Shown here: positions 27,860-46,834 of the stretch, piece after piece
Position numbering within the stretch: the first letter of the stretch is position 1
Layout: every line of letters begins with the position of its first letter
Origin: Armatimonadota bacterium
GTDB lineage: Bacteria; Armatimonadota; Hebobacteria; CAIYQO01
Length of the DNA: 64,000 bases
Assembly (NCBI GenBank): GCA_029553475.1
Contig: JAKPKV010000166.1
Coordinates: 3,520-67,519, forward strand
Direction of reading: 5' to 3'
The notes under the pieces: generated by a model
Seen by the model: the letters and a program-made list of their open reading frames with translations, nothing else
Databases searched by the model: none
What the model was told of the DNA's origin: nothing
Program-made: the position numbers and the translations under genes

Positions 27860-27864
27860 TGGAA

Positions 27865-30591
27865 ATGAACGCACACCTGTACCCCCGCGGCGCCGCGCTG
27901 TGGCGCGGCCTGGTCGCTGGCCTGTTGGCCGGCCTTGTGCTCCTCACCGGCGCGCCGGCGCGGCTGCGGGGCGCGGACGCGCCTGTCAGCGCCGTCATCC
28001 TGCGCCAGGTGGATCCCAACGGCCCCTTCACCGCGGCGACGGTCATTCGCGACAGCGATGACGCCGTCCTCGTGGAGGTGGCGTGGGCGAAACCGGTGGC
28101 CGCCGATGCCCGCTACACCGTCCGCTGGCTCGGACCGGACGGCACGAACTATTACGAGAGCGCCGAGACCGTGAAAGCCGGCGCCGATTTCTTCTCCGTC
28201 GGCCTGCGCGTGAACGGATATCCACTGAGCCGCCTGAAAGGCCGGCATACGGTGGCCATCCTGCGCGCCGGCGAGGCGCAGCCGCTGGCGCAGCCCGTCT
28301 TCACGCTGGAGCCCGCCGCCCGCGACCCGAAGAAGCCGCGCTTCACCGGGCTGCTCGCCGCCGGCCTCGATGACGAGCTGACGCCGATGGGCACGGCGAC
28401 CAGCTTCTTCAGCGATACCGGCACGCTCTGGGTCCGGTATGCGGCGGAGGCCATCCCGGAGCGCGGGCACGCGCTCACCGCGAAGGTCTACGACGCGGAG
28501 GGCGCGCTGGTGCTGAGCGGCACCCCGATCACCACCGACGGCACGTCCGACATCTTCGGCGCCGGCTTCTACCTGGCCGGGCGCGCCTGGGCGAAGGATG
28601 GCGGCAAATTCACGCTGCGCGTCTTTTGGGATGAGGATCCCGACGCCGTGGTGAGCCTGCCCTTCACCGTGACGACCGCCAACCGGTATGCCCTGCTCAT
28701 CGGCATCGCCGATTACCCGGGCGAGGACAACGACCTGCCCGGCTGCGACCTGGACGTCGCGGCGGTGCGGGACATGCTCGTGGGCGCCTACGGCGTTGAC
28801 GAGAAACACATCACCACGCTGCTGAATCTGGACGCCACGAAGAAGAATATCGTGAACGCGATTACCGCGCTGGCGGCGAAGGCGAAGAAGGACGACGCCG
28901 TCTATATCCACTACTCCGGTCACGGCGGGCAGGTGCCCGACCTGGACGGCGACGAGGAGGACGGCTGGGACGAGGCGCTGGTGCCCGCTGAGCCGGTGGC
29001 CGCCATGGCCACCACCGAGGCGGATATCGCCCGCTACCTGACGGATGACGAGATCGCGGCGCTGCTGCGACAGTTCGTGACGAACAACGTCACCGTCGTC
29101 TTCGATTCCTGCCATTCCGGCACGGCGGTGCGCGCCATCGGGCCGGATGCCCTCACCCCGCCGGCGGCGCTGCGCCGCACGCGGGCGCTGAACACCGAAT
29201 TCAGCCGCGAGCTGATTCGCCGGGCGGAGGATGCCCGCCAGGCGCCGCGCGGCGATTCTGATCCCGCCGGCCTGGACATCGGCAAGCGCTACGTGTTCCT
29301 GTCCGCCGCCCGGCCGTGGGAGCTGGCCTCCGGCGACGACGACGGCGGCTTCTTCACCATGGCGCTGGTCCGCGCGCTGACCTACGCCGACGGCCGGAGC
29401 TGGGAGCAGCTGATGACCGACGTGCGGAAGGAAGTGATGGCGATCAACTTCTCGCAGAACCCTGCGGCCGAAGGCGCGGCACGCCGCCTGCCCTTCTCGC
29501 TGGCGGAGGCGGCGGAGGACGCCCCGTTCGTGCGTCCCACGCTGGCGGTGGCCGGCGCGGCGGAAACGGGGCAGGAGCAGCCCACGCGGCTGGCCGCCGG
29601 CAGCGCCGGCAAGCACCTGGCGCTCATTGAAGGCCAGAGCACGGTTTACCTGGAGCAGATCGGCGCGCTGTACGACGTCTATCCCGCCGGCGCCACGCCG
29701 GCGGCGAAAGCCAAAGGCCGCGTGCGCATCACCGGCGACCGCCAGGTGGCGGCGATCCGCAACAAGAAAGGCGAGGTGGTCTTCGAGGAGCGCTACACGG
29801 CCGGCGAGCTCCTCGCCGGCACCGTGAGCCGCGGCGACCGGCTGGTGGCCGTGTCGGTGCCGGCGCCGGCGGCCAGCCCGAAGGTCGGCTTCTTCATCGG
29901 CAAGGACAGCCTGGACGTCGAGCGCAAGACCGCGCAGACGATCAGCGAGACGCTGCGGCGCGATCCGGCCATCCGCATCATGGACCGCGGCGCCTTCGCC
30001 GACATGGATTACGTCGTCGAGACGCGCCTGCGGAACACGGTGCTGACGGCCATCATCTGGTCGCCGGGCGGCTGGCTGATGGCGGACTTCACCGGCGCCG
30101 AGCGCGAGCTGGGCGAGAAGGTGAAGGCGTTCATCGCCGACCGGCATCAGCAGTACGCGCGCTTCATCCGGGTGAGCAACCCCGGCGCGGCCTACGCCCT
30201 GCGCGCCGACGTGGCGGGCGGCGACCTGCCCCGGAAACGCGGCGAGACGGTGACGATCACCGTCACCGGCGGCGCGCCGGGCTACCTGACGGCGCTGGCC
30301 GCGCCGGCCTTTGGCGCGCCGCGGCTCATCGGCGCCTCGGCGTCCGCCATCCCCGCGGGCCGGGCGCACACCTTCGCGGTGACGCTGCCGGATACGCCGG
30401 GGCGTGTGCCGGTGAAGATCATCAGCACCGCGCGCCCGCTGGACGGCGCGGCGATTGACAGGGCCGCACCGGCCGGGCGCACCGACGCTTTCCTCGCCGC
30501 CCTGCGCGGCGCGGTCGGCGCCGGGCTGGCGCCCAATCACCTGCCCACCGCCGACTGGGCGGATGCCATCGTCTGGATAGACGTCCGGTAA
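27865..30591 (+). CDS. exported peptidase C14 (caspase/metacaspase-like) domain protein with large flanking beta-rich domains, ~908 aa
   Basis: Caspase catalytic dyad YIHYSGHGG (His) and VVFDSCHSGT (Cys) in RYALLIGIADYPGEDNDLPGCDLD...; N-terminal hydrophobic segment LVAGLLAGLVLLTGAPA; start overlaps or abuts the stop of the CHAT gene (TAATGGAAATG). Confidence 0.85.
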   Translation: MNAHLYPRGAALWRGLVAGLLAGLVLLTGAPARLRGADAPVSAVILRQVDPNGPFTAATVIRDSDDAVLVEVAWAKPVAADARYTVRWLGPDGTNYYESAETVKAGADFFSVGLRVNGYPLSRLKGRHTVAILRAGEAQPLAQPVFTLEPAARDPKKPRFTGLLAAGLDDELTPMGTATSFFSDTGTLWVRYAAEAIPERGHALTAKVYDAEGALVLSGTPITTDGTSDIFGAGFYLAGRAWAKDGGKFTLRVFWDEDPDAVVSLPFTVTTANRYALLIGIADYPGEDNDLPGCDLDVAAVRDMLVGAYGVDEKHITTLLNLDATKKNIVNAITALAAKAKKDDAVYIHYSGHGGQVPDLDGDEEDGWDEALVPAEPVAAMATTEADIARYLTDDEIAALLRQFVTNNVTVVFDSCHSGTAVRAIGPDALTPPAALRRTRALNTEFSRELIRRAEDARQAPRGDSDPAGLDIGKRYVFLSAARPWELASGDDDGGFFTMALVRALTYADGRSWEQLMTDVRKEVMAINFSQNPAAEGAARRLPFSLAEAAEDAPFVRPTLAVAGAAETGQEQPTRLAAGSAGKHLALIEGQSTVYLEQIGALYDVYPAGATPAAKAKGRVRITGDRQVAAIRNKKGEVVFEERYTAGELLAGTVSRGDRLVAVSVPAPAASPKVGFFIGKDSLDVERKTAQTISETLRRDPAIRIMDRGAFADMDYVVETRLRNTVLTAIIWSPGGWLMADFTGAERELGEKVKAFIADRHQQYARFIRVSNPGAAYALRADVAGGDLPRKRGETVTITVTGGAPGYLTALAAPAFGAPRLIGASASAIPAGRAHTFAVTLPDTPGRVPVKIISTARPLDGAAIDRAAPAGRTDAFLAALRGAVGAGLAPNHLPTADWADAIVWIDVR

Positions 30592-32597: not shown

Positions 32598-34322
32598 TCA
32601 CTCTTTCAACGTCACCGTTTCCTCCACGCGGTAGACGGCGCCGTCGCGGATGGCGAAGTAGTGGAGTTTGGTGGGGGTGTCGAAGAAGACGCGGCTGATG
32701 ATCCGGTGGTAGGTGGGGCCGAGGTGGCCGTTGACGACGGCGCTGTCGCGGCTGTAGCGGGTGGCGGTGTAGGCGACCAGCGGGGCGTCGGGGGCGAAGA
32801 CGGGGTGATTGAGGCTGCTGACGGTTGGGCCGCGCCGGCCATCCACCACCAGCGCGCGGCCATCCGGCATGTTGATCTGATAGGAATAGTGCCGACTGTC
32901 GGGGGTGAAGGTGATGAGTGACTCAATGGACGCGCTATGGCGCAGGGTCTCCCGGCCGTCCACGACGACCACCTGCTGACCGCGATCCTTCGCGAGGTAG
33001 ATGGCGCGCTTGCCGTTCGGGCTGAAGACGACGTAGGGATCAATCTCCGCGTAGCGGTTGCCGGCCTGCCCGTCCATCACCATCTGCTGGTATTTGCCCA
33101 CCTGCGCGAGGTAATAGACGCCGGGGCTGTGCGGGATGCCGCCCAGCATGTGGATTTTATCGTAGCGCCGGCTCTCCTGGCCATTCACCACCACCACGTA
33201 CTGTTTGCCGACGGGCGCGGCGAACGCCCAGGTGCCGCCGTGGTGCAGGACATGTTCTTTAACGGGGTAGCGCTCCTTCGGCGGCGGCGTTGTCAACGGC
33301 ATGGTGATGGCCACGGCCAGAAGCTCGCGAACGAACAATACGGTCGCCCCCTCATCCATCCCCGCCGCGATTGACGCGGGCGGCGGGGCGAATTCCCGCC
33401 GGTAGACGGCATCCTGGCGGGTGGTTTCGCGGCCGTCCACCACAAGCATTTTGCGGCCGCCGCGCCAGGCGGGGTAGGCGAGGTGGCGGCTGTCGCGGCT
33501 GAAGGCGAGATCTATGCTGCTGGAATAGGCGTAGGCGGGGATGATCTGGTCATACAGCGCTTTCGGCTGGCCGTCCACCACCACTTTCCAGCCCGCGCCC
33601 TGCTTGGCGACGTAGGCCAGGCGTTTTCCATCCGGGCTGAAGGCGATGGCGCCGATGCGGTCATACGGCGGCCCTTCCACGCCGTCCACCACCACGTGCT
33701 GCTTCCCTGCGCGCTTGATGACCCAGGCGAGACGATGCGTCGCCTCATGCACCAGGGCGAATGCCGGTGAGAAGGCTGGGCGGTCGGATGGCATGTAGCA
33801 CGAAGAGGTGGCGAAGTATGTACGAATGATCGGCGCGTTCGGATCGCATTCCCGCCAATCGCTGCCTTCCACGCTCCCCGTCGGGCGGTCACTGGCCACT
33901 TGCAGCGATTTAATGCCGTCATACGGGCCGTATTCCCGCGTGCCGTGGACAAGGTCGTATCGCGCGTCCTTCTTCGCCAGGTAGTAGGGCGTGTCATCCC
34001 GCGTGCAGTGAATCGGACTGATGACTTTGTCGAATACTTTGTCCGGGACGCCGTTGATGAAGACGGTCTGCGGCTCGCCGTCCTTGCGCGCGCTGGTATG
34101 GACAAGGAGCTTGCCGTTGGGACTCACCAGATACTGCGGGCCGCTGAACACCGACGCGAAGATGAAGTTCCGCGAACGAGGACTGACCGTCTCACCATTT
34201 TCGGTCTTGACCGGCGGCGGCGGGGGCACGAGCAGCGTCTCCGTCGTCGTGCGTTCCGCCACCGGCGGAACGGCCAGCGCGGCGCCGGCGAGGGCGAAGC
34301 AGAGGATGAGCATCCGTGACAT
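32598..34322 (-). CDS. exported beta-propeller repeat protein (PD40/TolB-like repeats)
   Basis: Signal peptide MSRMLILCFALAGAALA; recurring ...FSPDGKRLAY / VFSPNGKRAIY / TFTPDSRHYSY ... VVVDG... repeat units. Confidence 0.7.
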   Translation of the reverse strand: MSRMLILCFALAGAALAVPPVAERTTTETLLVPPPPPVKTENGETVSPRSRNFIFASVFSGPQYLVSPNGKLLVHTSARKDGEPQTVFINGVPDKVFDKVISPIHCTRDDTPYYLAKKDARYDLVHGTREYGPYDGIKSLQVASDRPTGSVEGSDWRECDPNAPIIRTYFATSSCYMPSDRPAFSPAFALVHEATHRLAWVIKRAGKQHVVVDGVEGPPYDRIGAIAFSPDGKRLAYVAKQGAGWKVVVDGQPKALYDQIIPAYAYSSSIDLAFSRDSRHLAYPAWRGGRKMLVVDGRETTRQDAVYRREFAPPPASIAAGMDEGATVLFVRELLAVAITMPLTTPPPKERYPVKEHVLHHGGTWAFAAPVGKQYVVVVNGQESRRYDKIHMLGGIPHSPGVYYLAQVGKYQQMVMDGQAGNRYAEIDPYVVFSPNGKRAIYLAKDRGQQVVVVDGRETLRHSASIESLITFTPDSRHYSYQINMPDGRALVVDGRRGPTVSSLNHPVFAPDAPLVAYTATRYSRDSAVVNGHLGPTYHRIISRVFFDTPTKLHYFAIRDGAVYRVEETVTLKE

Positions 34323-34400
34323 CGTTTCACTCCCGAACAGCAGTGTTCTCATCTCATACGCCATAGCGGGCGAGCGGTTGCCGGAGGCTCGCCCGTCCCG

Positions 34401-36413
34401 TTACCAGCGAGCGGCGTTGATGGCCTCCTGGGCGTCGGGGTATTTCCCGGCGGTGGTGAAGGAGCGGTAATATTCGTAGGCGGCGCCGGTCCAGCGGTAG
34501 AAGCGGAACTGGTAACGGGCGTCAGGGTCGGCGGGGGTGGCGTCGCCAGCGCGGCCGGCGGTGATGATCTCCAGGCCGGGGGCGGCGCGGTCGGCGTCGT
34601 CGAAGAGCCAGGCGCCTTTCGCCGCGTGGGCGAAGGGCAGGCGGCTGATGAGGCGCAGTTGCGCGGTGCCCGGCCAGGCAAAGAGGAACAGCGCTTCCTC
34701 GCCGGTGCGGGCGGCGAGCACGACGTAGAGCTCCAGCACGCCGTCGCCGTTCACGTCGCGGATGCCGAAACTGCCCAGCGGCGCGGGGATGTCCGGCGTG
34801 GCGCCGGCCAGCCCGGTCCAGCGGAAGGCGGTCTCGTTGGGGACGCGCTCGTCAAAGGTGAGGGTATCGAGCAGCTCGGCGGGGATGACGCCGTGCTCAT
34901 CCGGCGCGGGGAAGATGCGCAGCATCGGCGGCAGGTCGGTGCCGCCGTCCGCGACGGCCACCGCCACCGTTTCCGCCGTCCCGTCGCCGTTCAGGTCGGC
35001 CGTCCACGCGCCGACGCACTGATAGCCCTTCGAGAAGAGGCGGGGAAATCTCGTCTCCGGGCGGGCGATCATCTCCATGGGCACCGCCGGGCGCGGGGTG
35101 TCCGTCGCCGCCCCGACCGGGATGACCACGCGGAAACCGACGTTGGCATACATCTCGCCGGGCCGCATGGTATCCAGCCGGTAGGCGCAGCGGAACTTGT
35201 AGCCGTGCGTATCCATCGGGTCGAAGCAGGAGTTGCCGCGCACGGCGTACTCCTTCAGCGCCGCCGGCCCGCGCGGGTTGGCCCAGCGGCTGCTGCCGGG
35301 ATCATCGGGGACCAGCCAGTCGGCGCAGAGCTCCGCCATGTTGCCGGCCATGTCCAGTAGGCCGTACGGGCTGGCGCCCCCCGGAAAACTCCCCACCGGC
35401 TTGCGGGCATCAATGCCCGGCTTGCCCATGAAGGGCGCGTAGCGCGTCTCGTCGCGGCGATTGCCCCACGGATACTCGCGCCCGTCCGTGCCGCGCGCCG
35501 CTTTCTCCCATTCCGCCTCGGTGGGCAGGCGCCCGCCCGCCCAGGCGGCGAAGGCGGCGGCTTCTTCCGGCGTCATGCCGCTGACCGGGTAGTCGTCCTT
35601 CCAGCCCTCCACGATTTTGCCGTCGTCGCGCAGCACCTGCGGGGGCACCGGCATCGGCGTTTTCGTCGCCGCGCAGAACTTTGTATACTGCCCGGCGGTC
35701 ACCTCGTACTTTGAAATCCAGTAGCCGTCCAGGTGCACCATGCGCGCGTGATGCTCCAGCGGGTTGCCCGTCTCCTCGATCTGGAAGGCGGTGCTCTGCA
35801 GCGTCACCGCTTTATCCGCGCCGTCGCCGGTGGGGGTGAGCACCGTCGTCTCCAGCGGCACGGGGCGGGCGCGTTTCAGGCCGCTGCTGCCCATCTGGAA
35901 CGCGCCGGCGGGCACGAAGACCATGAGGCCGCCGTCGGGGCTGTTCAGGCGCAGCGTGGGCAGCGCGAAATCCGGTTTCGGCGGCCCGGCGCGGAGGAGG
36001 GTGCGCATGGTGGCGGCGTCGCGGCTGAGCTGCACGTTGAGCAGCCCGGCCAGCCCGCGCGCGATCACGTAGCCGACGGCGTCATATTTCAGCATCGGCT
36101 TGCCCAGGTCCACCGTCTTGATCACCGGCGCACTCTTCGGGCCGCTGCCGTCCGCCGTCGGCTGCCAGGCCGGATCGAGGATCTCCGCTTTCGCGCCCAT
36201 CATGGTGAAGCGGATCACCGTGCGCGGCACGGCGGGGAGGGTGAGGGTGAGGGTATTCGTCGGCGGGTCGAAGACCAGCTCGCCCCCCGCCCACTCCGCG
36301 GCGGCGCGCAACGGCACGTAGGTGGTATCTCCCACCAGCAGCGCGAAGGGCTCGTCGGCGAGGAGGGCGGCGGCGCAGGCCAGCGCGCAGACCAACATGG
36401 CGCGGCGAAACAT
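34401..36413 (-). CDS. exported multidomain FGE-sulfatase (SUMF1-like) domain protein
   Basis: ATG at 36411-36413 preceded by GGAAAGGA; signal peptide MFRRAMLVCALACAAALLA; central FGE domain ...GYWISKYEVTAGQYTKF...WEKAARG...RGNSCFD; the 360 codons upstream in the track ORF are not coding. Confidence 0.8.
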   Translation of the reverse strand: MFRRAMLVCALACAAALLADEPFALLVGDTTYVPLRAAAEWAGGELVFDPPTNTLTLTLPAVPRTVIRFTMMGAKAEILDPAWQPTADGSGPKSAPVIKTVDLGKPMLKYDAVGYVIARGLAGLLNVQLSRDAATMRTLLRAGPPKPDFALPTLRLNSPDGGLMVFVPAGAFQMGSSGLKRARPVPLETTVLTPTGDGADKAVTLQSTAFQIEETGNPLEHHARMVHLDGYWISKYEVTAGQYTKFCAATKTPMPVPPQVLRDDGKIVEGWKDDYPVSGMTPEEAAAFAAWAGGRLPTEAEWEKAARGTDGREYPWGNRRDETRYAPFMGKPGIDARKPVGSFPGGASPYGLLDMAGNMAELCADWLVPDDPGSSRWANPRGPAALKEYAVRGNSCFDPMDTHGYKFRCAYRLDTMRPGEMYANVGFRVVIPVGAATDTPRPAVPMEMIARPETRFPRLFSKGYQCVGAWTADLNGDGTAETVAVAVADGGTDLPPMLRIFPAPDEHGVIPAELLDTLTFDERVPNETAFRWTGLAGATPDIPAPLGSFGIRDVNGDGVLELYVVLAARTGEEALFLFAWPGTAQLRLISRLPFAHAAKGAWLFDDADRAAPGLEIITAGRAGDATPADPDARYQFRFYRWTGAAYEYYRSFTTAGKYPDAQEAINAARW

Positions 36414-36842
36414 GGCGGCGATCCTTTCCACGGCGTCCGGGGAGCGGCGTCCACGACAGTACCCGAGTCTGCCTCCATTATATCGGGAAGCCGGGTCTAT
36501 ATCCATAGACACCGGCCGCGGCGGAGAGTTTTGCCGCGGCCCGGCGCGGGCGCCCGGCGAGAATGTCGGCGCATGAGCCCATCCTCGTCCAGCCTCGCTG
36601 GATGGCGCCCGGGAAAATCCGCACATCTTCGCGCCGCTGTCACGCTTTTGCCGCATGGCGCGCCTGCCGGGGAAAAGTGACGGCGAACCGGCACGTCGCG
36701 CGCTCACCCGGTGTGCGAGACTGGGCTGGAACATCGGGCATCCCTCGCGCCCCGTGTCATGTACCCGTACCGCAGCGGTGGCATGGCCAGCGGGTGAGCC
36801 GGTGGATTCGACGATACCCTTGGGGAAAAGGAGGATCTCCCG

Positions 36843-38444
36843 ATGAAAAACGGGTTGATGGGTCTGCTCGTCGGCCTTGCGCTGGTAGTGAGTGCCAGCG
36901 CGATGGCCGCGCCGCAACCCCTCACGAATGCCGCCCTCGACCAGGTGGTCGCGGGGGAGGCGACGGCCAGCGGACCACAGGCCGTCGCCGTGGACGGTGA
37001 TGACAGCGCGAACGTCGCGGCGGGCGCGCTGGCGGCCGGCGCGGCGCAAGCGGTGAACGGCGCCGGCAATATCACGACGCAGAATCCGACGAACAGCGCG
37101 GTGTCGTCCACGGACGGCGTCAGCCTGAACGCGGAGAACGGCGGCATCGCGGCGGCGCTGGCGGCGGATGCGCTGGCGGCGGCGTCCAACAATCCGGACG
37201 AGAGCGCCGTGGCGCTCGGCCATGACAACCTCGCGCGGAATTTCGCGGACAACGACGATGTCGCCAATGCCTCGGGGGCCGCGCTGGCCATCGCGGAAGC
37301 GGATGACGCCGCCAACGCGTTCGGCGCGAACAGCCAGGCGTTCGACGGCAACGATGACCTCGCGGTGGCCGACAACGGCACGGCGATCGGGGCGGCCGGG
37401 GACGCGGCGCTGAATCTCGGCCATGCCAACGTCGCCATCGAGGCGCCGGACAACGCGACGCTGGCGCAGGGCCAGGGCGAAGCGGTGCAAAACACGGGCG
37501 CGCTAGCCTGGGCCGATACCGGCGTGGCGGTGGCCAATCCGTCCGACCTGGCGCTGGCGGCCGGCAGCGGCATCGCCGCCGTCGGCAGCGACTTCGCTCT
37601 CGCGTCGGACGACGCGGCGGCGGCGAACGCCAACGATGACGCCGCGCTGGCGCTGGGCGTCGGCAATATCGCGCTCGATGCGCCGGACGACGTGGCCGTG
37701 AATACCGGCAGCGGCGTGGCCGCCGTGGACAGTGCCCTCGTCCTCGCGGAAGAGGGCGGCATCGCCGCCGCGGATAGCGACGAGGCGGCCAACGCCCTCG
37801 GCCATGGGAACACGGCCATCAATGTCGCCGATAACGCGGATAGCGCCATTGCCGTGTACGGCGGCAACGCGGGCCGCGCCAACGGCAACGGCCAGGCGGC
37901 GGCCGGCGACGGCAACACGCAGCAGTATCAGGACGCCACCAATGCCATCGCGGCGATGGATGACGCGGTGGTCCACGTCACCGCGTCCGCCATTGACGAC
38001 ACCACGGTGGAACGCGGCTCGGCCGCGATCATCGGCGAGAGCAACCAGGTGGCGGCGCTGGCGGGTGAGACGGAGATTGATGTCGAGACCGATGGCGGCG
38101 ACCTGGAGATTGACGGCGTGGTGGCCAAATCCGCGGCAATCGTGTGCGCCTTCAACGAGGACGACCGGACGATCACGGTGGAGGTGGAGATTGGCGACTC
38201 CTTCAACGTCGAGAACAACGTGCTGCGCATCTGCGGGATGGATCAGGCGTCCGGCATCGTGCTGGCGAGCTCGCTGAACGACCAGCAGACCGGGGCGAAC
38301 CTGAACGTGACCAGCGCCACCAGCGTGGTGCCCACGGTGACGGGGACGAGCGTGCCGGCGACGGCGGTGGGCACGGCGACGGCCGACACCGCGCTGAACC
38401 AGTTGGTGAGCAACGGGTCTGCGCTGGTGAATATCCAGTTCTGA
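36843..38444 (+). CDS. secreted Ala/Asp/Asn/Gly-rich low-complexity repeat protein, paralog 1 (candidate fibre/amyloid subunit)
   Basis: AAGGAGGATCTCCCGATG start context; signal peptide ...SASAMA; then APQPLTNAALDQVVAG; degenerate ~20-30 aa repeats (DAALNLGHANVAIEAPDNATLAQ...); C-terminal ...ALVNIQF. Confidence 0.8.
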   Translation: MKNGLMGLLVGLALVVSASAMAAPQPLTNAALDQVVAGEATASGPQAVAVDGDDSANVAAGALAAGAAQAVNGAGNITTQNPTNSAVSSTDGVSLNAENGGIAAALAADALAAASNNPDESAVALGHDNLARNFADNDDVANASGAALAIAEADDAANAFGANSQAFDGNDDLAVADNGTAIGAAGDAALNLGHANVAIEAPDNATLAQGQGEAVQNTGALAWADTGVAVANPSDLALAAGSGIAAVGSDFALASDDAAAANANDDAALALGVGNIALDAPDDVAVNTGSGVAAVDSALVLAEEGGIAAADSDEAANALGHGNTAINVADNADSAIAVYGGNAGRANGNGQAAAGDGNTQQYQDATNAIAAMDDAVVHVTASAIDDTTVERGSAAIIGESNQVAALAGETEIDVETDGGDLEIDGVVAKSAAIVCAFNEDDRTITVEVEIGDSFNVENNVLRICGMDQASGIVLASSLNDQQTGANLNVTSATSVVPTVTGTSVPATAVGTATADTALNQLVSNGSALVNIQF

Positions 38445-38781
38445 CGCCGAATCCCCCCGGCAGGGGAGCTGTGCGCGCGGGCGCTGTCGCTCGCGCGCAC
38501 AACGTTGTCTGGCACGTCGCGCAACCGGCCGTGGGGCAGGCGATGGGCTGAGAAGTCCACAACGGGGCGTGTTTGCACGGATTTACACGCAAGCGGGCAT
38601 GCCGGGCGGGACAGTGGCGGGGAAGGTGCACATGCCCGGCATGCCGGGGGTGCGAGACTATGCATGAACGCCGGGGAGCCGCTCGCCCCTGATGCTGGGG
38701 TATGATACCGCTGCGGCAGCGTGAGGATGGCGCGGGCCTCCCGATGATTCGACCACCAAGGGGAAGAAGGAGGATCTCCCG

Positions 38782-40452
38782 ATGAGACAACGTGTCACAG
38801 TGTTGATGGCGGCCTGTGTACTGGCGATCAGTACGGCCGCCTTTGCCGCGCCGCAGCCGCTGACGCAGGCGGAGCTGGCGCAGGTGTCCGCGGGCGCGGG
38901 CATCCTCGACTGGTTCCTGGGCGCCGGCACGGGCAATCCGGCCAGCGGCTTAGCGAACTCGACCGGCACCGCGATCGCCGATGGTGAGCAGGCGGTGGCG
39001 GTGGATGGCGACGGCAGCGCCAATGCCGCCGCGGGCGCGCTGGCCGACCAGGCCGCACAGGCGGTGAATGGCAACACCAACACCACCGAGCAGAACCCGA
39101 CGGCGAGCGCGGTGTCGTCCACCGGCGGGTTGAGCGCGAATACCCAGGATGACGGCATGGCGCTGGCGGCGGCGGAGAGCTCGCTGGCGGCCTATTCCGA
39201 CAATCCGACTGACAGCGCGGTGGCCGCCGGGGTGGGGAATGACGCGCTGAACTTCGCCGACAACGGCGACGTGGCCAACGCCACCGACAGCGCGCTGGCG
39301 ATCGGCGACGCCACCGGCGCTGCGAATGCCTTCGGCGAGAACAGCCAGGCTTTCGACGGCAACGATGACGTGGCGGTGGCCAGCAACGGCGTGGCGATCG
39401 GGAATGCCGACGGCGCCGCGGCGAACATCGGTGACGGCAACGTCGCCATTGACGACCCGAATAACGTGGTGCTGGCGCAGGACCAGGGGCTGGCCGTGCA
39501 GAACGACGGGGAGCTCGCCTGGACGGCGAGCGGCATCGCGGTGGCGGATCCGGGCGACGTGGCCATCGCGACCGGCAGCGGCATTGCCGCCGAGGACAGC
39601 GCCTTCGCCGTGGCCTCCCAGAACGGCGTCGCCGCCAACGACAATGACGCCTCGGCGGTGGCCGCCGGTCAGGGCAACATCGCCATTGACGACCCGAGCG
39701 ACGCGGTGGTGAACACCGGCAGCGGCATCGCTGCCGGCGATAGCAGCCTGGCTGTCGCCACCGGCAGCGGCATCGCGCTGCAGGACAACGATGACGCCGC
39801 CAACGCGGTGGGCACCGGCAACACCGCCCTCAACGCCAGCGACAACTCGGACAGCACGATCGCGCTCGGCGGCAACGCCGCCACCGCCACCGGCAGCGCC
39901 CAGGCGGCGGCCGGCGACGACAACAAACAGCAGTATCAGGACGCCACCAATGCCATCGCGGCGATGGACAACGCCAGCGTGACAGTGGCGAAGAACGACA
40001 TTCGCGACAGCACCATCGAAGACGGTTCGGCGGCGGTGGTGGGCAACGGCAACCAGGTGAGCACCGTCTACGACGAGACCACCATCGCGCTGGAGACCGA
40101 CGGCGGCGATATCGAGGTGACCGGCGTCATCGCGAAGGAAGCGGTGATCACCGATTCGTTCAACACCAAAGAGGTGGAGATTGACGTCACGGTGACCATC
40201 AGCGACTCCTTCAACGTGACCACCAATGTCCTGGAGATCAGCGGGCAGAACGGCGTGTCCGCCATCGTGCTGGCCAACTCGCTCGGCGAGCAGTATATCG
40301 GCACGAACCTGAACGTGACCAGCGCCGCCAGCACGGTGCCGTCCGTGTCCGCGCCCGGCGTCCCGGCGGCCACCATCGGCACCGCGACGGCCATCACCAC
40401 GCTCAACCAGATCGTCATCAACGGCAGCACAGACATCACGGTTACCTTCTAA
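38782..40452 (+). CDS. secreted Ala/Asp/Asn/Gly-rich low-complexity repeat protein, paralog 2
   Basis: Identical start context AAGGAGGATCTCCCGATG; signal peptide ...STAAFA; then APQPLTQAELAQVSAG; collinear with paralog 1 including the ANAFGENSQAFDGNDD block; C-terminal ...DITVTF. Confidence 0.8.
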   Translation: MRQRVTVLMAACVLAISTAAFAAPQPLTQAELAQVSAGAGILDWFLGAGTGNPASGLANSTGTAIADGEQAVAVDGDGSANAAAGALADQAAQAVNGNTNTTEQNPTASAVSSTGGLSANTQDDGMALAAAESSLAAYSDNPTDSAVAAGVGNDALNFADNGDVANATDSALAIGDATGAANAFGENSQAFDGNDDVAVASNGVAIGNADGAAANIGDGNVAIDDPNNVVLAQDQGLAVQNDGELAWTASGIAVADPGDVAIATGSGIAAEDSAFAVASQNGVAANDNDASAVAAGQGNIAIDDPSDAVVNTGSGIAAGDSSLAVATGSGIALQDNDDAANAVGTGNTALNASDNSDSTIALGGNAATATGSAQAAAGDDNKQQYQDATNAIAAMDNASVTVAKNDIRDSTIEDGSAAVVGNGNQVSTVYDETTIALETDGGDIEVTGVIAKEAVITDSFNTKEVEIDVTVTISDSFNVTTNVLEISGQNGVSAIVLANSLGEQYIGTNLNVTSAASTVPSVSAPGVPAATIGTATAITTLNQIVINGSTDITVTF

Positions 40453-40522
40453 GTCATCTGGTCGGACCATCCGGGGAGCCGGCGGGAGGCCGGCTCCCCA
40501 CCGAGGAAGGAAGGAGGGAACG

Positions 40523-41059
40523 ATGGGCAGGAACGTGAGCCGTATCCTCGGCTGCGCGGGCATCGCGCTGATGATGAGCCTGATGGCGGTGGCCGGCCCT
40601 CGTCCGATGAGCGATGATCAGCTCGACGCGGTCTACGCCGCCGGGTTCGATGTCGAGATCAGGATGGATATGGATCTCGCGGCCAGCAACCCGGACGCGC
40701 TGGTGCTGCAGGGCGGCGACCCGGAGATGCTGGCGCAACTCTTCACCAGCGGCATCCCGCTGCTGCGGAGCGCCGGCACCGGGCGCAATACCGCGCTGAT
40801 AGATCCATCCGGCGCCTATATGCCCAATCTGCAAAATCTGACGGTGAACAACATCAACATCACCGGCGAGGCGCTGAAAGGGGCGACCACCCTGCTGAAC
40901 ATCTTCGCGTTGGATGGCGACGTGGCGGTGGGGCTGAACCTGAACGTGATCGTGAATCCAGTCGGCGGCACCTGGAACATCAATCAGACGAACATGAACT
41001 GGGCGAATCTGCTCGTTTCGGATGCGCTCAAGACACTGGGCGCGGGCGGCGCGTGGTAA
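40523..41059 (+). CDS. small secreted protein sharing the N-terminal leader-like motif of the repeat proteins (candidate nucleator/accessory subunit)
   Basis: Hydrophobic N-terminus ...ALMMSLMAVAG; then PRPMSDDQLDAVYAAG; Asn/Leu/Gly-rich beta-like C-terminal half. Confidence 0.65.
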   Translation: MGRNVSRILGCAGIALMMSLMAVAGPRPMSDDQLDAVYAAGFDVEIRMDMDLAASNPDALVLQGGDPEMLAQLFTSGIPLLRSAGTGRNTALIDPSGAYMPNLQNLTVNNINITGEALKGATTLLNIFALDGDVAVGLNLNVIVNPVGGTWNINQTNMNWANLLVSDALKTLGAGGAW

Positions 41060-41089
41060 ACTGAACGGCGAAGCGATGTGAGGACGTTC

Positions 41090-41809
41090 ATGCGGCTGAC
41101 CGGTACCTGGACGATACTCCTGGGCCTGGCGCTCTGGGCCCTGGCGGGCGCCTCACCCGTGTGCGCGGGTGAGGCGCGCATTCCCGTCGGGCCGGCGGCG
41201 GCGCTGACGCTGTCCGTCGCGGTGGACAGCATCAAAGAGATGCGCGAGGCGGGCATCACCCTGCAGCAGCTCGATTACAGCTGCGGCTCGGCGGCGCTGG
41301 CCACGCTGTTCACCGCGTACCTGGGTCAGCCGTATACCGAGGCCGATATCATCAACTTCATCGTCAAATCCACGGATTTGCAGAAGGTGGCGGCGCGGCG
41401 GGGCTTCTCGCTGCTCGACCTGAAGCGCTTCGCGGAGGCGCACGGGGTGCAGGCGGAGGGGTATCAACTGGATACTCCCGGCCTGCTGGAGCTGAACTGC
41501 CCGGTGCTCGTGCCGCTGTATCGTCCGGACACGAAGATGCGGCACTTCGTCATCTTCCGCGGGGCGCTGGGCGACCGCGTCTTCCTCGCCGACCCGGCGG
41601 TGGGCCGGCAGACGATGTTCCGCGCGGAGTTCGAGCGCCTGTGGAATCCGCGCGTGGGCATGGTCTTCACCCACGCGGGCGCGCCGCCCACGGAGGAGAC
41701 GCTGCTCGGCGTGAAGCCGGGCGACGAGATCTACATCGGCGCGGAGGCGCTGCGCGCGCTGGTGATGCGCACCGCGCTGCAGTTTATCCATCAGGCGCAT
41801 GAATACTGA
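41090..41809 (+). CDS. stand-alone exported peptidase C39-like cysteine protease
   Basis: Signal peptide MRLTGTWTILLGLALWALAGASPVCAG; C39 catalytic motifs QQLDYSCGSAALATL (Cys) and HFVIFRGALGDRVFLADP (His...Asp). Confidence 0.8.
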   Translation: MRLTGTWTILLGLALWALAGASPVCAGEARIPVGPAAALTLSVAVDSIKEMREAGITLQQLDYSCGSAALATLFTAYLGQPYTEADIINFIVKSTDLQKVAARRGFSLLDLKRFAEAHGVQAEGYQLDTPGLLELNCPVLVPLYRPDTKMRHFVIFRGALGDRVFLADPAVGRQTMFRAEFERLWNPRVGMVFTHAGAPPTEETLLGVKPGDEIYIGAEALRALVMRTALQFIHQAHEY

Positions 41810-41940
41810 TCGCCCACCTCTCTCCCCGACTCCCTCCCCTGGGAAGGGAGGGAGAGACATGGCGAAGGGCGGGGAGCACCTCTCCCCCCAACCCCCTCCC
41901 CTATGAAGGGAGGGGGAGACATGGCGACATAAAAAGGAGC
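41810..41940. repeat. two tandem ~55-bp GC-rich stem-loop units between the C39 peptidase and beta-barrel genes
   Basis: Unit A ...actccctcccctgggaagggagggagagacatggcgaagggcgggg; unit B ...cccccaaccccctcccctatgaagggagggggagacatggcgacat; each contains a 9-bp stem CCCTCCC/GGGAGGG with a 7-nt loop. Confidence 0.8.
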
Positions 41941-41945
41941 GCGGC

Positions 41946-43037
41946 GTGCGAACCCATCTGCTCTACACCATCACCCTCGTGGTGGGACTGATGTGTCTTG
42001 GCATCCTCGCGCGGGCGCAGACGCCCGCGCTGCCGGCGGACATCCCCGCGGCGAGCGGCACGCCGGCCCTGCCGCCGGAGGGCGGCGACGGCGGCGCGAC
42101 GGACGACGGCGCCACCCCGCCGCCGACCGTCACCCCGCAGCTTCCCGCCAGCGCCACCCGCTCGGACCTGCTGGTGCGCCGGGGGGCCAAAGAGGTGGAG
42201 CTCCGGCTGGCCTACTCGCATTTCTCGAAAAACACCCTCTTCATTGACGGCGTGGCGATGCTGCCGGTGCTGGTCATCGGCGAGGTAGCGGTGGAATCGG
42301 TGCGGCGCGACGTGCTCATCGCTTCCGTCGCCGGGCGCTACGGCATCCGCGACAACCTGGAGGTGGAGGTGAAGGTGCCCTTCCGCTACCAGTACGAGAC
42401 GCGCGACGTGCCGCAGGCCGACCCGCCGCAGCAGATGTCGCTCTCCGCGCTCGGCCTCGGCGACATCGAGGGCGCCGCCTACGTGCACCTGGCGTCAAAA
42501 CGGCGGACCGGCGCGCGCTGGATCGCCAACGTCTCGGTGAAGTCCGCCACCGGCAAGGATATCTTCTCCATTGATCCCGATACCGACGTGCCGCTCGGCA
42601 CCGGTTTTTGGAGCACGCGCGTGGGCGTCACCGGCATCAACATCGCCGACCCCGGCGCCGTCTTCTGGAACGTCGGCTACACCTACAACTGGCTGCGCAC
42701 AGATATCCGCGTCGTCACCGAGGACGCACAGACCGGCGACCAGTTCGTCAGCTACGTGGACATCAAGCCCGGCAACACCTTTGACGTGGGCGCCGGCTAC
42801 GCCTACGCCATCAACCCGCGCATGTCGGTGAACACGGGGCTGTCCATCTCCTTCAATGGACCCACCCGCTCCAACGGCCGTGAGCTCGCCAACACCCGCC
42901 TCACCAGCGCCGCCCTGCGCCTGGGCGCCGTCTGGCTCACCGAGCGCAAATTCCCGGTGGACCTCGCCGTCAGCATCGGCCTCACCGACGACTCGCCGGA
43001 TTTCACGGTGGATTGGCGGCATAGCTATAAGTTCTGA
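41946..43037 (+). CDS. outer-membrane beta-barrel protein (candidate export pore of the repeat-protein locus)
   Basis: Signal peptide; Pro-rich linker; alternating amphipathic beta strands; C-terminal aromatic ...WRHSYKF typical of OMP beta-signals. Confidence 0.7.
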   Translation: MRTHLLYTITLVVGLMCLGILARAQTPALPADIPAASGTPALPPEGGDGGATDDGATPPPTVTPQLPASATRSDLLVRRGAKEVELRLAYSHFSKNTLFIDGVAMLPVLVIGEVAVESVRRDVLIASVAGRYGIRDNLEVEVKVPFRYQYETRDVPQADPPQQMSLSALGLGDIEGAAYVHLASKRRTGARWIANVSVKSATGKDIFSIDPDTDVPLGTGFWSTRVGVTGINIADPGAVFWNVGYTYNWLRTDIRVVTEDAQTGDQFVSYVDIKPGNTFDVGAGYAYAINPRMSVNTGLSISFNGPTRSNGRELANTRLTSAALRLGAVWLTERKFPVDLAVSIGLTDDSPDFTVDWRHSYKF

Positions 43038-43273
43038 GCGGGGGCGTGTCTGGCGATAAATCCGGGGAGGGGGGCCGCCGCCGTCCCGCCTGTGCCCTCG
43101 CGGGGTTGGGAACAGCGCCACTCCACTTCGTTGCGTGGCGCACTACCAACGAACGGGTGCAAGATCGGCGCCGTGCTTCCCCGCTGTCGCCGTTTCGCCC
43201 CGCGCCTTGCCAGCAGCGGCCTCTGGCGCGTATACTGGGGGCAACCCCGCGGCCTGCCGCAGTCGGTTCGCCC

Positions 43274-46200
43274 ATGTATCTCAAACGACTCGAACTCGCT
43301 GGCTTCAAGACCTTCGCCGAGCGCACGACGCTGGAATTCGGTCCCGGCATCACCGCCATCGTGGGGCCGAACGGCTCCGGCAAGAGCAACATCAGCGACG
43401 GGCTGCTCTGGGTGCTGGGCGAGCAGGGGCTGAAGGCGCTGCGCAGCGCGAAATCCACCGACATCATCTTCAACGGCTCCGAGGGCCGCAAGGCGCTGGG
43501 GCTGGCCGAAGTGCACCTGACGCTGGACAACGCCACCGGCTTCCTGCCGACCGAGTTCACCGAGGTCACCGTCACCCGCCGCGTCTTTCGCTCCGGCGAG
43601 TCGGAATATCTCATCAACCGCACCCCCGTGCGCCTGCGCGATGTCCAGGAGCTGTTCATGGACACCGGCATCGGCAAGCACTCGTACTCCATCATCAGCC
43701 AGGGCGAGGTGGACGCCGTGCTCTCCTCGCGCTCGGAGGACCGCCGGGCGCTCTTTGAGGAGGCGGCGGGCATCACCAAATACAAGCAGCGCAAGAAAGA
43801 GGCGCTGCGCAAGCTGGAGCAGACGCGCCAGAACCTGCTGCGCGTGAGCGATGTCATCAGCGAGCTGGAGGGGCAGATCGGGCCGCTGGCGGAGCAGGCG
43901 GAGGCGGCGCGCGCCTACCAGGTGCTGCACGCGGAACTGGTGGAACTGCAGCTCGCGCTGCTGGTGGCGCAGTATACCGGCCTGCAGAGCAGCCTGGGGC
44001 GCGCCCGCGAGCGCGAGACGGAGCTGACCACGGAGTTGGAGGGCCTGCGGCACGCGCTGGGGCAGATCGAAATCCGCGAGACGACGCTGCGCGCCGAATT
44101 GGCCGCGCTGGAAGACGAGCTGGAGGAACGGCGGGGGCTGGAGAACCGGCTGGCGAGCGCCGTGCAGGCGGTGGAGAGCCGCATCACCCTGCTGACACAG
44201 CAGGAGGAGCAGGCCCGCCGCGAGCGCGCGCGGCTGCAATCCGAGCGCGAGGGGTGGCTGGGCGAGGCGGAGCTGTTTGACGGCGAGATCGCCGCCGCCG
44301 ACGCGGAGTGCGCGCGGCTGCACGGCGTCATCGCCGGACTGGACGCGGAGCTGGCCGACGCCGACGCCGCGGTGAAGGACGCCGCCGCCGCCGTGGACGC
44401 GCTGGCGGCGGAGATTCAGGCCCGCCGCGGCGTCTATTTCGACGCCCTCGACGCCGCCGCCAGGATGCGCAACGAGCTGGCGCGGGTGGCCTCGCTGCTG
44501 CGCTCAGCCGAAGGGCGCGCGACGCGCATCGCCGACGAGCAGGCGGAGATCGCCCGCAAGCTGGCGGCGGCGGGGGCGGCGCGGGCGGCGGCGGCGGCGC
44601 GCGCCGATGAGCGCCGCGCCGCGCGCGAAAAACTGGTGGCCGCCCGCGCGGCCGCCGGCCGCGCCCGGCAGGGCGCGGCGGAGGCGCAGGCGGGGCGGCG
44701 CACGGAGGAGGCGCGCGCGCGCGAAGAGTTGGCCGGCCTGCGCGCCCGCCAGCAGACCCTGCGCGAGTTGGAAGAATCGCTGGAGGGCTATTTTCCCGGC
44801 GTGCGCGCGGTGGCCGCCGCCGTGCAGGCTGGGCGACTGACGGGCTGGTACGCGCCCGTCGCGGAGCTGCTGGACGTGCCCGCCGAGCTGGAAACCGCCA
44901 TCGAAGTGGCGCTGGGCGCCAACCTGCAGGATATCGTCACCGATACCGAGGAAGCGGCGCGGGCGGCGGTGGCGCTGCTGAAGAGCACGCGGGCGGGGCG
45001 CGCCACCTTCCTGCCGCTTGACCTTATCGCCCCCGCGCCCCGCGCGGACGTGCCCGCCCTGCCCGGCATCCTCGGGCTGGCGATGGATCTGATTCGCTAC
45101 GACGCCGAGTTTGAAAAGATTGCCCGACACCAGTTGGGCCGCGTGGTCATCGCCCGCGATTTGGACGCCGCGCTGGCGCTGGCAAAAGCGGGCACGGCGA
45201 AGGGCTGGAGCCGCATCGTCACGCTGGAGGGCGAGGTGGTGCATCCGTCGCGCGCCATCACCGGCGGCTCGTTGGGGAAATCCGGCGGGCTGTTGACGCG
45301 CAAGCGCGAGCTGCAGGAGCTGACCGACGGCGTGGCGCGGCTGGAGCGCGCGTGCGGCGCATTGCAGCGCAAGGCGCAGGACGCGGCGGCGGAGGTGGCG
45401 CGGCTGGACGCGGAGCTGAGCGCGCTGGCGAAAGCGTCAGAGGAGGCCGCCGCCGGCATGGCGGACGCGGAGCGCGCGCTGGCGACGGTGGGCCGCGACG
45501 TGGCGGCGCTGGACGAGCGGCGCGCGGCGCTGGCCGACGAGGCCGAATGGCTGGCGCGGGAGCGGGCGGAGGCGAAGACGGAAGAGACGCGGTTCCTCGC
45601 CGAGCTCGACGCGCTGGACGTGCGCTGCCGCGAGGCGGAGGCGGCGGTGGATGCGGCGGAGCGCGCGCTGGCCGGCGGCCAGCAGGATCGCGACGCCGTC
45701 ACCGAGCGCTACGCCGCGCTGCGCCTGCGCGTCACCGAGGAGCGCGGCACGCTGCAGGCCCGCCAGTCGGCGAAGCGCCGGGCGGCGGAGATGCGCGACA
45801 GCCTGGCCGAGCGGCTGGCGGCGAATGCGCGGGCGACGGCGGCGCAGGAGGGGGCGCTGGCGGAGCTGGCCGTCCAGCAGCGCGAGGCGTCCGCCGAACT
45901 GCTGCGCGGGCGGCAGGCGTATGCCAGCGGGTCAGCGGAGGTGGAGGCGGCGCGCAACCGCCGGGCGGCGCTGCTGGAGTCCATCGCCGCCAACCTGCAG
46001 GAGCACAAAGACGGCCGCGACGCGATTGAGGAGTGCCAGGGGCGGCTGCATCGCGCCAACCTGCGCACCACGCAGGTGGAGACGGAGCTCGGTTTTTTGC
46101 GTGGGCAGTTCTTCGAGGATTACCGCCTCACCGTAGACCAGGCGCTGGGGAAAGCCGCGCCGGTGGAGAGCCGCGGCGTCGCCGTCGCCCGCCTGCGCGA

Positions 46201-46834
46201 GCTGCAGGCGGCCATCGAGGAGATGGGGCAGGTGAACCTGGGCGCCATCGAGGAATACGCGCGCATCCAGCAGCGCCTCGGCTTCCTCACCGCCCAGCGC
46301 GCCGACCTGGAAGAAGGCCGCGAGCGGCTGGTGACGGTGATCGCCGAGATTGACGCCACCTGCACGGCGAAGTTTCTGGAGGCGTTCGCCGCCATCGCGC
46401 GGGAGTTCCAGGACCTGTTCGTGAAACTCTTCGGCGGCGGCCATACCGAGCTGTCGCTCACCGATCCGTCTGACGTGCTGGAGAGCGGCATCGAAATCCA
46501 CGTCACCATCCCCGGCAAGCGCAATCAGCATCTCCTGCAGCTCTCCGGCGGCGAGCGCGCGCTCACCGCACTGGCGCTGCTGTTCGCCATGCTGCGGGTG
46601 AAGCCCAGCCCCTTCGTGGTGCTCGACGAGATTGACGCCCCGCTGGACGAGGCGAACGTGGGGCGCTATTGCGACGTGCTGCGCGACTTCACCGCCGACA
46701 CCCAGTTCCTCATCATCACCCACAACAAGGGCACCATGGAAGCCGCCGACGTGCTCTACGGCGTCACCATGGAGAAGGCGGGGATTTCAAAAATCGTCAG
46801 CGTGCGGCTGGCGGAGGCGGGGGCGGCGGGGTAG
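43274..46834 (+). CDS. smc: chromosome segregation protein SMC
   Basis: N-terminal Walker A [39 protein letters not shown]; long coiled coils; hinge; C-terminal signature [16 protein letters not shown] and Walker B [12 protein letters not shown]. Confidence 0.95.
   Translation: [1186 protein letters not shown]

Follow-up and report, generated by a model that had tools for sequence, protein, structure and literature searches.

We have analyzed a stretch of 64,000 nucleotides from an Armatimonadota bacterium (the window), with five consecutive genes on its plus strand which code for two large repeat proteins (R1 and R2), a small protein (S), a C39 peptidase and an outer-membrane barrel, as listed in Table 1. 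These genes are likely, in our opinion, to form a Sec-dependent, two-step outer-membrane secretion locus of the FapD/FapF type, whose cargo is tagged with a leader peptide. The original prediction, made from the letters of the window, had described the same five plus-strand open reading frames (ORFs) in this order, with coordinates which are exact. It had compared them with the Fap system of Pseudomonas: the core of a Fap-like export pathway would be a C39 peptidase in the periplasm together with a pore in the outer membrane. Profile searches agree with this comparison.

The peptidase matches Peptidase_C39 in Pfam (PF03412, E-value 3.9e-17) and a double-glycine protease in the PDB (6mpz, 4e-4). 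In NCBIfam its best match is FilB (2e-31), and it also matches FapD (1.1e-26), both scores being far under the equivalog cutoffs. The catalytic residues Gln63, Cys69, His156 and Asp172, numbered from the GTG codon, are all present. The same pattern (Q-x5-CG and H-x15-D[PS]) is intact in 76 of the 77 family members which we have collected. The protein has its own N-terminus of signal peptide type (...SPVCA/GE), and its gene is found 136 bp upstream of the barrel gene.

The barrel matches FapF in NCBIfam (1.3e-29, profile positions 121–420 of 420), as well as FilC (6.5e-14). In the PDB, it matches the FapF structures 5o65/5o67 with an E-value of 1.6e-19: Residues 80–363 are aligned with 34–334 of the chain, which is the whole crystal construct, and the segment P-L-G-T-G-F-W-S with P-T-G-N-G-V-W-S of FapF. 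The Pfam match, to PF13557 (Phenol_MetA_deg), is weak (3.2e-6). The protein is composed of a signal peptide, a Pro/Thr/Ala-rich linker of about 55 amino acids (approximately residues 25–78) and the barrel itself, from approximately residue 80 to the C-terminal YKF. Judging from composition and from the profile start at position 121, FapF's N-terminal coiled coil is absent; in P. migulae, FapF has there the heptad-like EALKQELMELKQRYEAQQNALMVLEQRV. The linker of the window barrel contains GG (...PPEGGDGGATDD...), which is not conserved in the consensus of the barrel family.

The scores of the Fap models are well under their NCBIfam equivalog cutoffs: 103 bits compared with 700 for the barrel and the FapF model, and 93 compared with 330. 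From these profile matches, the barrel is to be classified as a member of the FapF family, not as an ortholog, and peptidase and barrel together as true FapD/FapF-family homologs, not as mere analogs. In this respect the original prediction, which saw the machinery as an analog only, has to be corrected. Its remark that Fap homology is not obvious from the sequences is wrong for the peptidase and the barrel, and right for R1, R2 and S, which match none of FapA, FapB, FapC and FapE. As a separate observation, the peptidase has a conserved C-terminal tail, ...ALQFIHQA(N/H)E(F/Y) (41700–41806), similar to the end of FapD in the P. migulae locus, ...DFGFIRSDFF (L079, 8123–8803). Docking to the barrel is a possible role of this tail.

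The N-terminal motif which S shares with R1 and R2 had already been noticed in the original prediction; what had not been recognized is a C39-type leader behind a Sec signal peptide. Proteins of the R family have, directly after the AxA site of the signal peptide, the sequence A-P-Q-P-L-T-x-x-D/E-L-x-Q-V-x-A-G, with the family consensus LTNADLDQVxAG. The motif AAPQPLT..L..V.AG corresponds to invariant columns of the R alignment, and the R-type leader peptide, APQPLTNADLDQVVAG, runs on into EASASTD. In the S family the sequence after AxA is x-P-R/K-P-L/M-S/T-D-x-Q-L-D-x-V-Y-A-A-G, and the corresponding peptide of S is GPRPMSDDQLDAVYAAGFDVEI. More distant Armatimonadota cargo proteins of 295–347 amino acids, whose flanks have diverged, keep A-P-R/K/V-x-L-S-x-x-E/D-L-D-x-V-x-A-G.

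Counted from the final Gly, these leaders have Leu at -12, Asp or Glu at -8, Leu at -7, Val at -4 and Ala-Gly at -2/-1. Known C39 leaders end in GG, GA or GS, with the consensus Leu(-12)-X3-Glu(-8)-Leu(-7) (PMC6363468). The window leaders follow this rule within their last 13 residues: Leu at -12, an acidic residue at -8 (Ala in R1), Leu at -7 and a hydrophobic residue at -4. The residues at the site are Ala(-2)-Gly(-1) in R1 and R2 and Ala-Ala(-Gly) in S; the sister systems described below have GG, AG, GA, AA or AK. We have also built a leader profile in which all 19 leaders come from other phyla, and run it on 698 six-frame segments of the window and 698 reversed decoys. The top three matches are S (E-value 8e-4), R2 and R1, each at the correct position.

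To see how widespread this arrangement is, we have scanned species-representative genomes with an alignment of 17 barrel sequences, since a version with 22 sequences was too divergent. A total of 522 barrel relatives are found, and the counts which follow were taken from the best 80 of them. A C39 gene adjoins the barrel gene in 74 of these 80 loci. They are found in Armatimonadota, Thermodesulfobacteriota, Nitrospinota, Aquificales, Omnitrophota, Alpha- and Gammaproteobacteria and a metagenome-assembled genome (MAG) of Spirochaetales, and include bona fide Pseudomonas fap operons. A regular expression for the leader, applied to all stop-to-stop segments of the 80 loci, gives 27 matches; shuffled sequences give a mean of 3.2 (7 at most) and reversed sequences give 11. 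Twenty of the 27 are on the strand of the barrel gene, at most 8 kb upstream, and each of them is preceded by a hydrophobic stretch.

Some of these leaders end in a canonical GG: LSDEELGAVTGG in Nitrospinota, VTLDELDEITGG and ISDEELDDVSGG in Aquificales. Others are MSDTELDTVFAG in Nitrospinota, LSDSELEEVYAG in Aquificales, LSDEEMDQIAAG and MSDYELDQVHAG in Omnitrophota, LSLDDMESLAGG in Hyphomonadaceae, and LTDNELADVSAG and LSDNQLDQMTAG in gammaproteobacterial MAGs. The canonical GG leaders match the Pfam model Lactococcin (4.7e-5, 23.9 bits with a cutoff of 23.1), and also the Bacteriocin_IIc, class IIb bacteriocin and pheromone VP1 models. In at least five phyla, a small pair preceded by an aromatic residue (VYAG, IYAG, VFAG, VHAG) is found in the ORF directly upstream of the C39 gene; the corresponding sequence in S is VYAAG. 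The cargo found beside C39/barrel pairs in other phyla is very heterogeneous, from peptides of 45 amino acids to Ser/Asp-rich proteins of 750.

A few loci in this collection have unusual features. In a MAG labelled Limnochordia, a class of Bacillota, a barrel and a C39 gene are accompanied by an ORF with the leader LSDSELDSVVGA (L027): Either the envelope type of this lineage is of interest, or there is a binning error. Three loci from Billgrantia and a Pseudomonadota MAG (L038, L040, L047) have two C39 genes each, both on the strand opposite to the barrel: one approximately 1.6 kb downstream of where the barrel gene starts, the other approximately 5 kb upstream.

The fap operon of P. migulae (L079) allows a comparison with the known system. 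FapE (8837–9577), which is recognized by the NCBIfam FapE model with 346 bits, reads ...AEIFKPIELKDSELANLRGRY, and its segment PIELKDQELANLRGR is followed by YVMPG. FapA, FapB and FapC of this single operon do not have the leader motif. In 42 ORFs which occupy the FapE position in Pseudomonas, Halomonas-group and Erythrobacter loci (L036–L089), the signal peptide is followed by the sequence L-x-D/E-x-E-L-x-x-L/I/V-R-G-R/K, whose register is that of a C39 leader. We consider this N-terminal motif of FapE a candidate recognition site for FapD. It is not mentioned in the Fap papers which we have searched. FapD activity is needed for secretion and its catalytic Cys is required (PMC5557850). For its substrate, the literature has "unclear" (2017) and then "yet to be determined" (2018), and "thought to process" is still the wording for FapD and the N-terminus of FapE in 2025 (PMC5557850, PMC6173800, PMC12822426).

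S is the most conserved cargo-like component and is always encoded beside the peptidase gene. Its family has 17 relatives among 5.8 billion clustered proteins, and 32 representatives in an exhaustive HMMER search of 1.84 billion proteins. A jackhmmer search seeded with mature S, without its leader, converges on a module of 75–80 residues with 40 real matches, while no reversed or shuffled decoys are found. No Pfam or NCBIfam model covers this module. Of the 32 matches located in our loci, 31 are just upstream of the barrel gene and on the same strand. In L038, an ORF on the minus strand near the C39 genes (6182–6907) carries a module of this type. The module is present as a single copy in S-like proteins, and as two to six tandem copies in large cargo proteins of Aquificales, Nitrospinota, Gammaproteobacteria and Omnitrophota. 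By analogy with the proposed action of FapE, S might be an adaptor, an anchor or a nucleator, which is speculative.

In four Aquificales MAGs, the large leader-bearing cargo consists of five or six tandem copies of this module, which is N/Q-rich and occurs once in S (L023, 126–2102; L024, 5975–7948; L025, 4176–5549; L026, 7342–8730). Judging from the sequences, the architecture of this cargo is closer to Fap and curli subunits than that of the R proteins of the window. A module shared between S and the C-terminus of R was considered and rejected: hhalign gives a probability of 5% for an 11-residue match, G....G.NLNV, and the jackhmmer search from S never recruits R1 or R2.

R1 and R2 are 57% identical. 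Their composition (Ala 21–25%, Gly about 11%, Asp about 9%, Asn about 9%) is that of the two tandem Ala/Asp/Asn/Gly-rich paralogs of the original prediction. Both are very acidic, with 67–69 Asp and Glu residues compared with 7 Lys and Arg, and R2 carries an insert of 24 amino acids (GILDWFLG...) just after the leader. The repeat unit is a degenerate octapeptide, in which a short h-A-h strand leads into a turn of Asp, Asn, Gly or Ser. The periodicity is 8/16 residues, with super-periods of 48 and 64 residues and z values up to 7. Tandem Repeats Finder does not detect any repeats at the DNA level in R1 or R2, so that the amino acid repeats must be old and degenerate. The distant 295–347 amino acid cargo mentioned above can only be aligned with the first 100 residues of R, approximately, and the last 170–230, and the long repeat region is, as far as these alignments indicate, an expansion within the R1/R2 subclade.

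With 9 relatives among 5.8 billion clustered proteins, the R family is very small. No match for R1, R2 or S is found in Pfam or NCBIfam at an E-value of 1 or less, and a profile search of the PDB gives nothing significant. In particular, R and S do not match any S-layer, adhesin, enzyme or RTX family in these three databases. Once outside the cell, R1 and R2 probably adopt a repetitive fold rich in beta structure, as part of the surface or of a fibre. The fibre or amyloid nature of the product, suggested by analogy with Fap, is no more than a proposal. The R repeats are acidic, with 8/16-residue units, and not N/Q-rich like those of Fap or curli.

Each R gene is preceded by a conserved 5' leader element of about 240 nt. 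An nhmmer profile of this element gives only two matches in the window, ahead of R1 and R2, and in all Armatimonadota loci (L001–L006, L008, L012, L013) each R-type cargo gene has the element upstream of it. It ends in the invariant AAGGAGGATCTCCCGATG. With RNAalifold on 10 copies, 85.7% of cells are paired, compared with 33–52% when the partners are slid, and 16 pairs are changed on both sides; none of 500 shuffles reaches the observed values, which come from related paralogs and from the same alignment that was used to derive the structure. The central hairpin has 9 pairs, of which 8 covary. When 17 more divergent copies are used, only this hairpin and the Shine-Dalgarno hairpin, GGAG-GAU-CUCC, persist. 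The fold of the single sequence is not significant (z = -1.4), and Rfam gives no match anywhere in the window at the gathering threshold. We propose the element as a candidate new cis-regulatory RNA, whose Shine-Dalgarno hairpin would sequester the Shine-Dalgarno sequence. The presence of an own 5' leader element in each R gene is consistent with separately controlled, abundant structural proteins.

The gene order is conserved in related genomes. One to four R copies, S, the C39 gene and the barrel gene appear in this order in six Armatimonadota contigs (L001, L002, L003, L005, L006, L008), in which smc is nearly always the next gene after the barrel. In L004 the order is kept in part: R and S are visible, and then the contig ends. 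The five ORFs are genuine genes and not chance ORFs of a genome with approximately 69% GC: Each of them has homologs, and the order is kept in seven other contigs which show the region, if the partial case of contig P0021 is included. The best genome match to the barrel (96% identity) is "Armatimonadota bacterium UR.bin144", and several further matches bear the phylum name Armatimonadota.

In three relatives, the identity to the window proteins is 72/54/59% for the barrel, 65/54/59% for the peptidase, 71/56/51% for S and 81/66/69% for SMC, and only 53/43/43% for R, which diverges faster than the export machinery or SMC. This pattern fits vertical inheritance with a fast-evolving, probably surface-exposed cargo. 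It also points to an old, vertically inherited position beside smc, because the locus adjoins this gene even where SMC identity is only 66%. A variant is found in contig P0021, with cargo, S, cargo and C39 genes followed by a 1662 amino acid protein (weak FlgD_ig match) and no called barrel gene.

Table 1. Features of the secretion locus, in window positions.
Feature	Position	Strand	Description
R1	36843–38444	+	533 aa, cargo protein
R1, protein layout			Sec signal peptide aa 1–22; leader aa 23–38; acidic octapeptide repeats approximately aa 120–345; conserved C-terminal module ending ...NIQF
R1 leader	36909–36956	+	APQPLTNAALDQVVAG; L-12, A-8, L-7, V-4, A-2, G-1; predicted cut after Gly38
R2	38782–40452	+	556 aa, paralog of R1, ends ...ITVTF
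R2 leader	38848–38895	+	APQPLTQAELAQVSAG; L-12, E-8, L-7, V-4, A-2, G-1
S	40523–41059	+	178 aa, small cargo or accessory protein
S, protein layout			Signal peptide aa 1–24; leader variant aa 25–41 (PRPMSDDQLDAVYAAG); conserved module of ~80 aa, approximately aa 86–169
S leader variant	40595–40645	+	GPRPMSDDQLDAVYAAG; aromatic residue at -3 if cut after AA
C39 peptidase	41078–41809	+	243 aa counted from GTG; ATG 4 codons in
Barrel	41946–43037	+	363 aa, C-terminal ...HSYKF
5' leader element, R1 copy	36611–36842	+	Central hairpin ~36751–36788; Shine-Dalgarno hairpin GGAG-GAU-CUCC 36830–36840
5' leader element, R2 copy	38543–38781	+	Second copy

The upstream neighbour of the locus is a gene of FGE-sulfatase type on the minus strand, which ends near 36420. 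Downstream of the barrel, smc (43046–46834) has its own promoter-like site. A scan for sigma-70 promoters and intrinsic terminators gives nothing convincing on the plus strand within the locus. The long antisense ORFs across R1 (34401–37490 and 36704–37918, minus strand) are GC artefacts where they extend past this upstream neighbour. Three other genes of the window deserve mention. A TPR-rich protein of 1651 amino acids (22904–27859, plus strand) has a CHAT-type His/Cys-like pair at its end (LHFATHG ... VLSACET), and the next gene codes for a 913 amino acid protein (27850–30591, plus strand) with a caspase-like pair, HYSGHGG ... FDSCHSG; in both cases this is a reading of the translation. The third (32598–34364, minus strand) codes for a secreted-looking protein of 588 amino acids with many K..VVVDG.E...YD repeats.

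The pathway which we propose would proceed as follows. R1, R2 and S would reach the periplasm through Sec, where the signal peptide would be cut at the AxA site which is read from the sequence. This would expose a leader of 16–17 residues, APQPLTxxDLxQVxAG, which would dock on the periplasmic C39 peptidase; we propose docking because of the register of the motif, its co-occurrence with the peptidase and its conservation across phyla. The peptidase would then cut after AG, and removal of the leader by the cognate peptidase at this position seems most likely, because the catalytic residues are intact and because of FapD genetics. The cargo, still unfolded, would be threaded through the barrel, as suggested by FapF homology. 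Finally, in what is a speculative step, R1 and R2 would fold or assemble outside the cell, with the help of S.

Several observations weigh against this pathway. The start of all five proteins reads as an n-region, then a hydrophobic stretch and a site of AxA type, and these signal peptides were assigned by eye. The window leaders deviate at -2, where they have Ala and canonical sites have Gly, and when they are compared as 33-mers with GG-leader models there is no match. The cross-phylum leader profile gives R1/R2 poor scores (E-values 3.9 and 9.4), so that its support for them is by rank only. The leader of S is one residue longer and its register is ambiguous: The cut might be after AA or after AAG. 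In FapE the site would be G-R/K, which is no known C39 site. We have considered S as a FapE homolog and rejected it: hhalign aligns the signal peptide and leader alone, with a probability of 39%, and the NCBIfam FapE model does not recognize S. Cleavage itself is inferred from the residues and genetics mentioned above, and gating of the barrel may differ from FapF, the coiled coil being absent. R relatives are confined to a single Armatimonadota lineage. AlphaFold2 models are unusable both for R2 (predicted local distance difference test, pLDDT, 38 from a 10-sequence alignment) and for S (pLDDT 42 from 17 sequences). The fold of R and S, the formation of fibres and the role of S are therefore best described as unproven proposals.

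What is secreted might also be different. The same machinery could export an acidic, possibly cation-binding beta-roll or beta-solenoid adhesin, an S-layer-like coat or a matrix protein, monomeric or lattice-forming, and not a fibre or amyloid. We find this rather unlikely, and there are observations on both sides. Units of 8/16 residues with Asp/Gly/Asn turns and such an excess of acidic over basic residues are unlike the N/Q-rich repeats of Fap and curli, and no FapB, FapC or curlin profile is matched. Fast evolution of the cargo is typical of surface-exposed proteins, and the heterogeneous cargo of other loci suggests a general export route. Nevertheless, a set of multiple paralogous subunits with a small conserved partner resembles fibre systems made of a subunit and a nucleator, the Aquificales cargo has tandem N/Q-rich modules, and the sole characterized relative exports amyloid subunits. 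A bacteriocin-like or toxin nature of R1, R2 and S is very improbable. Double-glycine leaders classically mark bacteriocins and pheromones, the sister leaders match bacteriocin leader models, and some Aquificales and Nitrospinota neighbours have only about 45–60 amino acids after the leader. On the other hand, R1 and R2 have about 500 amino acids, are repetitive and extremely acidic, and have a dedicated, conserved 5' leader element each; the locus lacks genes for immunity, for an ABC transporter and for modification enzymes, and is vertically inherited next to smc.

Other alternatives concern the machinery. The motif might be an uncleaved docking or targeting signal, the peptidase being a chaperone or receptor, like the C39-like domains of RTX exporters, or a cutter of another substrate such as the barrel linker. 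It is true that the last residues of the motif are AG (G-R/K for FapE) instead of the canonical GG, GA or GS, that cleavage of the FapF linker by FapD has been raised as a possibility (PMC5557850), and that the window barrel linker has a GG. We consider this explanation quite unlikely, given that the catalytic Gln/Cys/His/Asp are kept in nearly all the peptidases, that secretion requires the catalytic Cys of FapD (PMC5557850), that the linker GG is not conserved and that sister systems have a canonical GG in their cargo. Finally, the barrel could be an ordinary COG4313/PF13557 channel for the uptake of hydrophobic compounds, with coincidental neighbours. Its Pfam match is to Phenol_MetA_deg, and uptake channels such as Pput2725 are in one superfamily with FapF (PMC6173800). 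The match to FapF is far better than to the generic family, however (1.3e-29 compared with 3.2e-6). Apart from Fap, no COG4313-like pore has been reported with a C39 peptidase at its side (PMC6173800), and the adjacency of C39 genes across phyla, with conserved synteny of leader-bearing cargo, effectively refutes this explanation, which we find hardly credible.

The leader-tagged secretion locus may be an example of something more general. Our confidence is evenly divided on a wider proposal: FapD-family C39 peptidases would recognize a double-glycine-type leader located right after a Sec signal peptide, in a leader-gated pathway with a shared cargo module of about 80 amino acids, present in several phyla (Armatimonadota, Aquificota, Nitrospinota, Omnitrophota, Proteobacteria). 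Pseudomonas Fap would be a derived case with the tag on FapE only, and the FapE N-terminus, L-x-D-x-E-L-x-x-L-R-G-R/K, would be a recognition or cleavage site of FapD. This amounts to an explicit rule for FapD: Sec cleavage would expose a leader of C39 type, for which cut sites are predicted. If the proposal is true, the amyloid curiosity of one genus turns out to be a general route of secretion in two steps, with an address tag which is portable, and this could serve the engineering of export through the outer membrane. Two cargo families without annotation and a candidate cis-regulatory RNA would also be added for Armatimonadota, where experimental characterization is scarce.

Comparison with known systems shows different degrees of similarity. 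Curli (CsgA/B/E/F/G) are similar in logic only: Sec export, a dedicated outer-membrane channel, and a repeat subunit with a small accessory protein or nucleator. There is no curlin or CsgG match in Pfam or NCBIfam, and curli have no peptidase. Ice-nucleation proteins have short-period beta-solenoid repeats with 8/16/48-residue periodicity. R1 and R2 have a similar 8/16/48-residue hierarchy, without sequence similarity and without any profile or PDB match. The window barrel differs from COG4313/PF13557 uptake channels in being linked to a C39 gene and to leader-bearing cargo.

The PCAT/AMS transporters (ComA, LahT, PCAT1) share the protease fold family with its Q/C/H/D residues, and their leaders are also similar: Leu at -12, Glu or Asp at -8, Leu at -7, Val or Ile at -4 and small residues at -2/-1. 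Their peptidase is a cytoplasmic domain of an ABC transporter, whereas here it is a separate, secreted periplasmic protein. In addition, their leader is the N-terminus of the protein and here it is found behind a Sec signal peptide, their site is Gly-Gly/Ala/Ser and here it is Ala-Gly, and export would take place here through an outer-membrane barrel. The Fil system of Acinetobacter, a "putative pilus system" which is uncharacterized (PMC4751259), provides the best NCBIfam match of the peptidase (FilB) and a match of the barrel (FilC); these scores are far under the cutoffs and are a profile comparison only. Our literature search for a description of Fil gave only vaccine papers on FilF.

The Fap system is also similar in its general plan. 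In either case, the C39 peptidase is a stand-alone periplasmic protein with its catalytic residues, and it is accompanied by an adjacent, homologous barrel of the 12-strand type, Sec-dependent cargo with several paralogous repeat proteins, and a small leader-tagged protein encoded beside the peptidase gene. The differences are considerable. Homologs of FapA, FapB, FapC and FapE are not found here with Pfam and NCBIfam (and hhalign for FapE), and there is no candidate for FapA. The leader is present on every cargo protein here and on FapE alone in Fap, a Pro-rich linker replaces FapF's N-terminal coiled coil, and the repeats are acidic octapeptides instead of N/Q-rich amyloid repeats. The gene order is cargo-S-D-F here and A-B-C-D-E-F in Fap, and the phylum is Armatimonadota. 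Colocalized pairs of fapD/fapF homologs have been described in "five additional phyla" by Rouse et al. 2018 (PMC6173800), a review which gives colocalization only; the locus presented here is one such pair outside Proteobacteria. Within the reach of our literature search, which excluded subscription-only papers, the combination of a Sec signal peptide with a double-glycine-type leader, these cargo families, the S module and the 5' leader element are undescribed. In summary, machinery of the Fap type was already known, and what appears to be new in this locus is its cargo families, the leader motif, the S module and the 5' leader element.

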